This document shows, one piece after another, positions 3,813-7,389 of a stretch of DNA of 26,342 nucleotides. The notes beneath the pieces are model-generated. The model worked only from the letters and a program-made list of their open reading frames with translations, made no database searches and was not told where the DNA came from. The DNA comes from a virus (lineage: Duplodnaviria; Heunggongvirae; Uroviricota; Caudoviricetes). A program made the translations under genes and the position numbers. Position 1 is the first letter of the stretch. Each line of letters begins with the position of its first letter. The stretch lies in IMG/VR virus record IMGVR_UViG_2850796239_000005, positions 1 through 26,342 of that record; one strand, given 5' to 3'.

Positions 3813-3862
3813 CACTTCACCTCCTGCGGCGGTTCTGGTAGCGGCATCCAGTGGATTTGCCC

Positions 3863-4768
3863 CTATATTTCCAGACATCTGTTATCACTTAACCCATTAC
3901 AAGCCCGCTGCCGCAGATATTCCCGTGGCGAGCGATAACCCAGCGCACTATGCGGATGCCATTCGTTATAATGCTCGAACGCCTCTGCAAGGTTCTTTGC
4001 TGCCGTTAACCCGTCTGGTTTGGGCATGATACTGATGTAGTCACGCTTTATCGTTTTCACGAAGCTCTCTGCTATTCCGTTACTCTCCGGACTCCGCACC
4101 GCCGTGTTCTTCGGTTCAAGTCCCAACATCCGGGCGAACTGGCGTGTTTCATTAGCCCGGTAGCATGAACCATTATCCGTCAGCCACTCCACTGGAGACG
4201 ACGGAAGATCGTTGCCGAAGCGGCGTTCCACCGCTCCCAGCATGACGTCCTGTACTGTTTCACTGTTGAAGCCGCCGGTAGTCACCGCCCAGTGCAGTGC
4301 CTCACGATCACAGCAGTCCAGCGCGAACGTGACACGCAGTCTCTCTCCGTTATCACAGCAGAACTCGAACCCGTCAGAGCACCATCGCTGATTGCTTTCT
4401 TTCACGGCCACTCTGCCTGTATGTGCCCGTTTCGATGGCGGTACAGCAGGTTTTCGCTCAAGCAACAGCGCATTCTGGCGCATGATCCGGTAAACACGTT
4501 TGGCATTGATCGCAGGCATACCATCAAGTTCTGCCTGTCTGCGAAGCAGCGCCCATACCCGACGATAACCATACGTGGGCAGCTCTCCGATAACATGGTG
4601 TATACGGAGAAGCACATCCGTATCATCAGTGTGACGACTGCGGCGGCCATCCATCCAGTCATCGGTTCGTCTGAGAATGACGTGCAACTGCGCACGCGAC
4701 ACCCGGAGACAACGGCTGACTAAGCTTACTCCCCATCCCCGGGCAATAAGGGCGCGTGCGCTATCCAC
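3863..4768 (-). CDS. insD: IS2 transposase OrfB (InsD), 301 aa
   Basis: Translation ([21 protein letters not shown]...HSDNGSCY...DNGxxES) matches the IS2 InsD DDE transposase as recalled. Confidence 0.9.
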
Positions 4769-5048
4769 TTTTTTGCCCGTCCATATTCAACGGCTTCTTT
4801 GAGGAGTTCATTTTCCATCGTTTTCTTGCCGAGCAGGCGCTGGAGTTCTTTAATCTGCTTCATGGCGGCAGCAAGTTCAGAGGCAGGAACAACCTGTTCT
4901 CCGGCGGCCACAGCAGTAAGACTTCCTTCCTGGTATTGCTTACGCCAGAGAAATAACTGGCTGGCTGCTACACCATGTTGCCGGGCAACGAGGGTGAACC
5001 GCCCCGGGAATCCTGGAGACTAAACTTCCTGAGAAAGAGGTAAACAGG

Positions 5049-5375
5049 ATGACTAAAAATACTCGTTTTTCCCCCGAAGTCCGTCAACGGGCAGTCCGTA
5101 TGGTTCTGGAAAGTCAGGGCGAATATGACTCACAATGGGCGACAATTTGTTCCATTGCTCCAAAGATTGGCTGTACGCCGGAGACTCTGCGTGTCTGGGT
5201 TCGCCAGCATGAGCGGGATACCGGGGGCGGTGATGGAGGGCTCACCACCGCTGAACGTCAGCGTCTGAAAGAGCTGGAGCGTGAAAATCGTGAACTGCGC
5301 CGCAGTAACGATATCCTTCGCCAGGCTTCCGCTTATTTTGCGAAGGCGGAGTTCGACCGCCTCTGGAAAAAATGA
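5049..5375 (+). CDS. IS629 OrfA (108 aa, HTH transposase subunit)
   Basis: [57 protein letters not shown]... matches IS629 OrfA as recalled. ATGA overlap with orfB start. Confidence 0.9.
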
Positions 5376-6258
5376 TGCCACTGCTGGATAAGCTGCGTGA
5401 GCAGTACGGGGTCGGACTGCTATGCAGCGAACTGCATATTGCCCCGTCAACGTATTACCACTGTCAGCAACAGCGACATCATCCGGATAAACGCAGTGCC
5501 CGTGCGCAGCGCGATGACTGGCTGAAGAAAGAGATACAGCGCGTATACGATGAAAATCACAAGGTATACGGTGTAAAGTCTGGCGTCAGTTGTTACGGGA
5601 AGGTATCAGAGTGGCCAGATGCACTGTGGCACGTCTCATGGCGGTTATGGGACTTGCCGGTGTTCTCCGGGGTAAAAAGGTCCGTACGACCATCAGCCGG
5701 AAAGCCGTTGCCGCAGGCGACCGCGTAAACCGTCAGTTCGTGGCAGAACGACCTGACCAGCTGTGGGTGGCTGATTTTACTTACGTCAGCACATGGCAGG
5801 GCTTCGTCTATGTGGCGTTCATCATTGATGTGTTTGCCGGATACATCGTGGGGTGGCGGGTCTCATCGTCCATGGAAACGACATTCGTGCTGGATGCACT
5901 GGAGCAGGCGTTATGGGCCCGTCGACCGTCCGGCACGGTTCATCACAGTGATAAAGGTTCTCAGTATGTATCGCTGGCCTACACACAGCGGCTTAAGGAA
6001 GCCGGATTACTGGCATCAACAGGAAGTACAGGCGACTCGTATGACAACGCGATGGCGGAGAGCATCAATGGTCTTTACAAAGCGGAGGTAATACACCGTA
6101 AGAGCTGGAAAAACCGTGCAGAAGTGGAACTGGCCACACTCACGTGGGTGGACTGGTATAACAATCGACGATTGCTGGAAAGGCTGGGCCATACTCCTCC
6201 GGCAGAAGCAGAAAAAGATTATTATGCTTCCATCGGAAACGATGATCTGGCAGCCTGA
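5372..6258 (+). pseudogene. IS629 OrfB transposase, internally frameshifted (split into 5372-5728 and 5590-6258)
   Basis: Frame changes between ...DENHKVYGV and (V)[14 protein letters not shown].... Recalled intact IS629 reads YGVRKVWRQLL, consistent with a 4-bp deletion near 5570-5585 and with the element being about 4 bp short. Confidence 0.7.
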
Positions 6259-6441
6259 GTTCACAGATAAAACACTCTCCAGGAAACCCGGGGCGGTTCA
6301 GGGAGACCGTCATCCCCGGTTCAAAGCTCTGCTGAACAATTGCGATCTTTTCCTGTGTGGTACGCCGTCTGCGTTTCTCCGGCCCTAAGACATCAATCAT
6401 CTGTTCTCCAATGACTAGTCTAAAAACTAGTATTAAGACTA

Positions 6442-7389
6442 TCACTTATTTAAGTGATACTGGTTGTCTGGAGATTCAGGGGGCCAGTCTATCCAGTGGG
6501 TTGCCTGTTCAATACCATTACCTGGCTTAACCGTTACATCTCCACGCCGGAATGTACCTCCGGTATAGCGTGCGGAGCATATTAGCGGTTCAACCAGAGA
6601 GCTATCGAAATTCACCGAAATAAGTACGTTCTGGCCCTTTTCAGGCATTCGATCACTACAGCTTATCCAACCATCCGGAATTACCGGAGAGTTGCCCGAC
6701 ATCTCATTCAACTTGTAAGTCTGGCTTACAGGTTTGGCTTCCAGTTCTGCTATGCGCTTTTTTGCTGTTTCCAGCTCGCTCAGCAGTGTCAGCACAGTAG
6801 CCGGATTGGCTGCGGCGATGAATTCAGCATTGGCCTGCTGTTCCATTTGGAAATCTTCATCGAAACCGCTTTCAGGATGCGCTCCTTCAATTCTGCAAAT
6901 AGGAAGATATCCAACAACTTCACGGTGAATTAGCGCATCATCAGCATCAAGTTTCTCCTCTCCATATTCGAGCGACCACACACCCCACGTTGCTTTCTCT
7001 GCCTTTTCACGCAGTGCCTGATAGTCAATTTCGCTCACTGTTTGCCTCCTTTGCGCCACATAGCATTCAGATATTTGTTTTGATTCACTGACGGAAACCA
7101 TATGTTGCGTTAACTGCCCAATTCCTGTGCATCCCATCATGGCGTGAATAATGCTCGCCCCAAATTTATTTTCAGTGCCGTCATTCTTCTGAACACAAAC
7201 ACTGAGATATTGGATTTTCCGTCCGTCGTCGGATTCTCCAGAAAACTCAATGAATCGGGCACCTTTTTCTGATTGCTTGAGTTCTGCTTCGGTGATGTTA
7301 ATGATATGCGCACCCGTTTCGGTAATAAAACCACCTTGTCCGGCGGTCAGTGCTGATTCTTCGTTATAAGTAAAAATCACTTCATCCAT
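6442..7389 (-). CDS. Phage accessory protein with DUF551-like C-terminal motif; native 3' end displaced by IS2
   Basis: ATG at 7389-7387 overlapping the exo stop. Phage-derived codons end at 6493 (...IEQATHW); the last 16 residues and stop are IS2-encoded. The reconstructed original tail continues at 3847-3812 (MPLPEPPQEVK-stop). DUF551 call rests on the [12 protein letters not shown] motif from memory. Confidence 0.55.

Follow-up and report, generated by a model that had tools for sequence, protein, structure and literature searches.

The window, i.e., the whole 26,342-nucleotide stretch of IMG/VR virus record IMGVR_UViG_2850796239_000005, is a chromosomal prophage of Shigella, lambdoid and defective, and is 100% identical to its source record, CP026875.1. 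Between positions 3847 and 6496 a gene of the early-left arm of this prophage is interrupted by the insertion sequence (IS) IS2, which is itself interrupted by a copy of IS629. Both elements are bordered by perfect target-site duplications (TSDs), TCCAG outside and GGG inside. The assignment to Shigella follows from the companion plasmid CP026874.1, which is pINV-like and bears ipaH, and from the naming of one sibling (CP026836.1) as Shigella boydii.

The interrupted phage gene and its two insertion sequences

With the insert excised in silico, the target gene lies on the minus strand and codes for a protein of 310 amino acids (aa) with Ead/Ea22 (PF13935) and DUF551 (PF04448) domains identified by Pfam and a C-terminus reading ...THWMPLPEPPQEVK; its stop codon overlaps the ATG of the following 131-aa gene as TGATG. 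IS2 entered 11 codons before the native stop, in the same direction as the phage operon, and only those codons were lost. The gene and its remains are now arranged as follows:

3417-3812, minus strand: downstream phage gene, 131 aa, no Pfam family, now 2.6 kb from the upstream open reading frame (ORF); the identical protein occurs in sibling prophages
3812-3846, minus strand: 3' end separated from the target gene by IS2, 11 codons (MPLPEPPQEVK) and stop, as reconstructed; L021 and L024, siblings with an empty site, have the same C-terminus
6442-7389, minus strand: target gene as present, a 315-aa chimera of the native codons (7389-6497) and 16 codons from the left inverted repeat (IRL) end of IS2

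The genes for YqaJ exonuclease, RecT, GamL, and KilR lie upstream, and those for a DUF4222 protein, two ORF6N proteins, and the integrase downstream. By domain content and neighbourhood the target is thus an early-left accessory gene, situated in the region that separates int/xis from the recombination genes, and the term "phage accessory gene" used for it in the preliminary description is a fair one. Its variable presence and length in the siblings suggest that it is dispensable. The phage genes downstream (from the 131-aa ORF to int) now have 2.6 kb of IS DNA between themselves and their promoter, which may exert a polar effect on them.

IS2 occupies positions 3852-6491 on the minus strand, its right inverted repeat (IRR) end, TGGATTTGCCCC, beginning at 3852 and the IRL end closing at 6491 (...GGCCAGTCTA / ...GGGGGCCAGTCTA); the arms of the imperfect terminal inverted repeat are found at 3860-3892 and 6450-6482. 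IS2 duplicates 5 bp of its target, and IS3-family elements transpose by a copy-out/paste-in pathway through a figure-of-eight and a minicircle. The following parts of IS2 were distinguished:

3847-3851: TCCAG, first copy of the IS2 TSD, present as a single copy in empty sites
3852-4994, minus strand: IS2 positions 1331-189, comprising the IRR end, insD, and the 3' part of insC (4726-4994), colinear with K-12 IS2A
3863-4768, minus strand: insD (IS2 orfB), 301 aa, intact, with the Pfam domains HTH_21, rve, and rve_3, 100% identical to K-12 InsD1
4768-4774, minus strand: A6G (AAAAAAG) window of the -1 frameshift, intact in sequence, its role taken from PMC3219604
6304-6491, minus strand: IS2 positions 188-1, comprising the IRL end and the first 33 codons of insC (6400-6304), recognised by the inverted repeat and by alignment
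6492-6496: TCCAG, second copy of the IS2 TSD, read directly

The two parts of IS2, joined after removal of IS629 and one GGG (3852-4994 plus 6304-6491), give an element of 1331 bp which can be aligned over its full length with IS2A of E. coli K-12 MG1655 (NC_000913.3, 381260-382590, an annotated mobile element that served as the IS2 reference), 1327 of the 1331 positions being identical (99.7%; four mismatches, no gaps). One of the substitutions lies in IRL (IS2 position 32) and the other three are synonymous; InsC (121 aa) and InsD (301 aa) of the restored element are 100% identical to InsC1 and InsD1 of K-12.

IS629 lies within insC on the plus strand, i.e., in the orientation opposite to that of IS2, begins with TGAACCGCCCCGG at 4995, and closes with ...CCGGGGCGGTTCA at 6300. 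Its terminal inverted repeats of 25 nt (4995-5019 and 6276-6300) are 92% complementary. It comprises the following:

4992-4994: GGG, first copy of the IS629 TSD (IS2 positions 189-191), a single CCC in reference IS2
4995-6300, plus strand: IS629, 1306-bp variant with a 4-bp deletion, 99.5% identical to IS629 of pCP301
5049-5375, plus strand: orfA, 108 aa, intact, HTH_Tnp_1 by Pfam
5330-5446, plus strand: ALIL pseudoknot, a frameshift-stimulating RNA of IS629-type elements (Rfam RF01497, 115.7 bits), annotated in reference copies too
5372-5728, plus strand: 5' fragment of orfB, with the frame lost after 5572 and a stop at 5728, by alignment
5590-6258, plus strand: 3' fragment of orfB with the DDE (rve) catalytic domain (Pfam), in a third frame, which the programmed -1 shift cannot join to orfA
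6301-6303: GGG, second copy of the IS629 TSD, read directly

Pfam found HTH_Tnp_1 in both OrfA proteins and rve, rve_3, and HTH_21 in both OrfB regions. The inner element is 1306 bp long against the canonical 1310 bp, GTGC being missing after window position 5572. Compared with an intact 1310-bp copy from E. coli CE10, in which a programmed frameshift is annotated for the transposase, it is 99.3% identical, with one 4-bp gap and a few substitutions. It shows 99.5% identity with a copy on the Shigella flexneri plasmid pCP301 that was deposited under the name IS629 ORF1/ORF2 and that also carries the 4-bp deletion. These comparisons, together with the colinearity of the joined IS2 halves, bear out to the base the coordinates first proposed for both elements. 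IS629 is known to duplicate 3-4 bp of its target, and 62% of its copies in O157 are situated in prophages (PMC3271280); the GGG duplication and the location in a prophage fit this picture.

Both elements are non-autonomous, for different reasons. The active transposase of IS2 is OrfAB, produced through the A6G -1 frameshift, and residue W49 has been placed in the recognition helix of its helix-turn-helix (HTH) motif (PMC3219604). IS629 splits insC, which encodes the N-terminal DNA-binding domain, at codon 33/34, i.e., upstream of W49. Neither InsC (OrfA) nor the frameshifted InsCD (OrfAB) can therefore be made, and IS2 is dead as an autonomous element. In IS629, orfA is intact and the ALIL pseudoknot is present, but orfB is frameshifted, and because the GTGC deletion puts the DDE (rve) part in a third frame no catalytic OrfAB can be produced. 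The window copy is a defective, non-autonomous member of IS629. Hence the earlier statement that neither element is likely to be autonomous is true of both and its explanation holds for IS2, but IS629 owes its defect to its own 4-bp deletion in orfB and not to the nesting.

Empty sites, shared junctions, and the order of insertion

The unaltered 131-aa protein encoded just downstream of the target gene was used to look up sibling prophages. Two of them, in CP119446.1 (L021) and CP026846.1 (L024), have an empty site reading ...CAACCCACTGGATGCCGCTACC... with a single CTGGA. Their flanks are 100% (7097-6491 side) and 99.6% (3857-3300 side) identical to those of the window, and the empty site is a base-for-base match to the window with 3852-6496 excised. 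More distant E. coli prophages (L003 and L004; ca. 91% identity) also have a single TCCAG. Similarly, reference K-12 IS2 has a single CCC (GGG on the plus strand of the window) at IS2 positions 189-191. Because the empty site and the reference IS2 each have one copy, the TCCAG and GGG repeats are true transposition scars and did not arise by chance.

The nested structure is present in at least six assemblies, the window and at least five others of the Shigella series (L018, L019, L020, L025, and L027). L018 (CP026836.1), which comes from S. boydii (PMC12817139), as well as L020, L025, and L027, agree with the window in both pairs of junctions, the outer and the inner, and in the 4-bp deletion. 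In L019 (CP026824.1) a deletion between CTGGAAAG microhomologies, in the region equivalent to window positions 5107-6183, has left only 237 bp of IS629, with its two ends and the flanking GGG preserved. The remnant is a derivative resembling a miniature inverted-repeat transposable element (MITE). L019 had been taken from its gene calls for a site occupied by IS2 only, until alignment revealed the IS629 remnant. L027 (CP026877.1) had in turn been taken for a carrier of intact IS629 on account of its 287-aa OrfB; in fact it bears, besides the 4-bp deletion, a further one of 20 bp (equivalent to window positions 5669-5688), the 24 bp in total restoring the orfB frame at the cost of ca. 32 scrambled codons.

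Since identical junctions are common to the siblings, the nested insertion has been inherited and predates the divergence of these strains. A private event in a single strain had been suggested by the 315-aa and 86-aa chimeric products, which matched the source contig only; this was overturned by the siblings found through the 131-aa gene. For the S. boydii-like group, in which it is shared, the nested structure could be a useful lineage marker. ISs are a classic cause of misassembly, and a GGG repeat alone has a chance expectation of 1/64, so that an assembly artefact, or homologous recombination between IS copies with coincidental short flanking repeats, had to be considered. The same junctions are, however, present in six separate assemblies, excision restores the sibling empty site and the reference IS2 base for base, and matching duplications on IS2 as well as on IS629 are not to be expected from recombination between ISs; this explanation is effectively refuted.

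Two successive insertions of IS3-family elements, IS2 first and IS629 second, very probably account for the structure, the order being assigned by parsimony. In the first step, IS2 would have inserted 11 codons before the stop of the Ead/Ea22-DUF551 gene with duplication of TCCAG. In the second, a 1306-bp IS629, with the orfB frameshift already present, would have been mobilised by a transposase acting in trans and would have entered insC at codon 33/34, in the opposite orientation, with duplication of GGG. Thereafter IS629 would make OrfA but no DDE-containing OrfAB, and IS2 neither InsC nor InsCD, and the nested structure would have been inherited by the at least six assemblies.

Several points weigh against this account, in which the order of events, regarded in the preliminary description as following from the intact duplications, is parsimonious but unproven. 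Intact duplications do not fix the order, as a 2.64-kb IS2::IS629 unit mobilised in trans leaves the same scars. No occupant of the site consisting of IS2 only was found among the sibling loci read, or in exact-junction scans of the Genome Taxonomy Database (GTDB) representatives and Joint Genome Institute (JGI) metagenomes, the negative result for GTDB being expected if its E. coli representative also stands for Shigella; all six occupied assemblies carry IS629 or its remnant. A transposase source, i.e., an intact IS629 or IS2 in this genome, is assumed, the 4-bp deletion could have come by gene conversion from plasmid copies into a once-intact insert, and the polarity on the downstream phage genes is presumed.

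The first of these points leads to the reverse order, in which IS629 entered IS2 elsewhere and the 2640-bp composite then transposed as one unit into the phage gene, with another IS2 copy providing the transposase in trans. Its outcome could not be told apart from that of the preferred order, with a 5-bp duplication outside and a 3-bp one inside; trans-mobilisation of defective IS3-family elements is evident from the TSD-flanked, 4-bp-deleted IS629 at several loci; the missing IS2-only intermediate (in siblings, GTDB representatives, and JGI metagenomes) agrees with it, as does the presence of IS1203 in a diverged IS2-like element next to the locus of enterocyte effacement (LEE) of O111, at precisely the same nucleotide. 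On the other hand, no second copy of the composite junction was found in the 5,426 complete E. coli genomes at matching identity, in the GTDB representatives, or in the JGI metagenomes, and the only record of the 86-aa product read through this junction is that on the source contig, with sibling variants at the same locus only. The reverse order also needs an extra assumption, the efficient action in trans on an element of twice the normal length, and is judged quite improbable.

The timing of the deletion is a separate matter. IS629 could have inserted as a full, autonomous 1310-bp element and have lost the 4 bp later, in situ or by gene conversion from invasion-plasmid copies, since IS copies within one genome are commonly homogenised and the six near-identical deleted copies in this genome would be ample donors. 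This also seems unlikely, as each of the five siblings in which the region is retained has the same deletion at this site and the same variant is found in independent TSD-flanked insertions elsewhere. Because the siblings share the deletion and the variant has independent insertions, arrival in the already-deleted state requires fewer events. The succession of IS2 and then an already defective IS629 is thus preferred.

Remaining features of the prophage

Apart from the nested insertion, the prophage shows other signs of rearrangement. Two IS600 copies, 100% identical and inverted, with arms of 1266 nt (19932-21197 and 24474-25739), surround a 3276-bp segment comprising the portal gene (21184-22728, minus strand) and a 539-aa ORF (22719-24338, minus strand), which run opposite to the lysis genes (18591-19528, plus strand) and to the tail-fibre gene (25707 onward, plus strand). 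This looks like an IS600-mediated inversion accompanied by the loss of most morphogenesis genes, and it is on this ground that the prophage is regarded as defective. The integrase ORF (window 1-903, minus strand) codes for 300 aa and is followed by a separate 78-aa ORF in the source record, the integrase of L019, L021, and L024 being 357 aa long; the window ORF is probably a frameshifted pseudogene.

Tandem paralogues of 260 aa with the ORF6N domain are encoded at 1184-1966 and 2166-2948 (minus strand), the P22_AR_C domain being present only in the first. A match to the Rfam family sRNA-Xcc1 at the gathering score (78.1 bits; 1881-1964, minus strand) lies inside the first of these, the antirepressor-like gene 1184-1966 (ORF6N/P22_AR_C), at its 5' end. 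The immunity region contains a hicA/hicB toxin-antitoxin pair (11460-12055, plus strand). C4 antisense RNA (78.6 bits; 10613-10700, minus strand) and isrK (61.6 bits; 10725-10801, minus strand) were matched by Rfam at the gathering score, and both adjoin or overlap the Rha/Ash gene at 10181-10717.

Spread of the deleted IS629 and comparison with known elements

The IS629 variant with the 4-bp deletion is not confined to the prophage described here. It occurs in a prophage of enteroinvasive E. coli (EIEC) O121 (L006), where it is annotated as "frameshifted" and flanked by a perfect 3-bp duplication, GCA, and at three loci of CP026765.1 (L030-L032) with the duplications CAC, CTA, and GCG, so that perfect 3-bp duplications surround the variant at five sites at least. 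Five further copies (L012-L016) reside on the 193.6-kb companion plasmid CP026874.1; none of the five has a target duplication, and two pairs have identical flanks, which suggests duplicated segments. This plasmid is heavily rearranged. Non-autonomous does not mean immobile: both IS2 and IS629 keep their ends, and the IS629 variant is found at the at least five TSD-flanked sites. With their terminal repeats retained, both elements may be substrates for a transposase provided in trans, and the simplest reading of the spread of the deletion variant would be its repeated mobilisation in trans by intact copies. The variant is thus a further data point for the spreading of frameshifted IS629 by trans-mobilisation.

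As a whole, the structure illustrates, cleanly and in textbook fashion, how ISs come to be nested in the IS-saturated, decaying prophages of Shigella. IS2 and IS629 are both textbook members of the IS3 family, the nesting of ISs is routine in prophages of the IS-saturated Shigella genomes, and the kind of event is already known, so that the finding matters little beyond bookkeeping and opens no new question. The only threads of mild interest are the spreading IS629 variant and the insertion point coinciding with one in O111 strains. The variant might be a successful non-autonomous lineage that parasitises intact copies, or one that damps IS629 activity in Shigella and EIEC through a truncated OrfAB' having the HTH and leucine zipper and no DDE, and the insC nucleotide hit in IS2 might be a preferred target of IS629/IS1203; taken jointly, these readings stand little chance of being right.

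A search with the whole structure was carried out in 5,426 complete E. coli genomes. It gave matches of 2644 bp, of which that in E. coli CP131_Sichuan was at first taken for the same composite and was rejected as such; an IS629-type element resides inside IS2 there too, but alignment places it at a different IS2 position, and it has its own 3-bp duplication and a length of 1310 bp. A closer parallel is found in E. coli O111:H- 11128 (L009; NC_013364.1, ca. 3752409-3754954), where IS1203 lies inside a degenerate IS2-like element beside ler/LEE, its left junction (..CAACAAGGG|TGAACC) coinciding to the nucleotide, and its orientation agreeing, with those of IS629 in the window. It differs, however, in that the IS2-like host is 94.4% identical and IS1203 96% identical to its counterpart in the window, that an adjacent deletion of 96 bp removes the second GGG, and that the IS2-like element has no 5-bp duplication around it. 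This arrangement is common to dozens of O111-type genomes. The coincident insertion point could be a hot spot or the trace of an old shared composite.

IS2A of K-12 is 1331 bp long, as is the window IS2 without IS629, and shares with it InsC and InsD, the A6G window, the terminal repeats, and the 5-bp duplication, but only the window element is interrupted at insC codon 33/34 and so lacks a transposase of its own. Members of the IS3-family element IS629 (isoforms IS1203 and IS3411), known from Shigella, E. coli O157 and O111, and EIEC, have the same ends, orfA, ALIL pseudoknot, and 3-bp duplication as the window copy, which, like most IS629 copies of O157, is situated in a prophage (PMC3271280). 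Unlike the canonical element, the window variant measures 1306 bp and its orfB is frameshifted upstream of the DDE domain, yet it is present in multiple copies in Shigella and EIEC.

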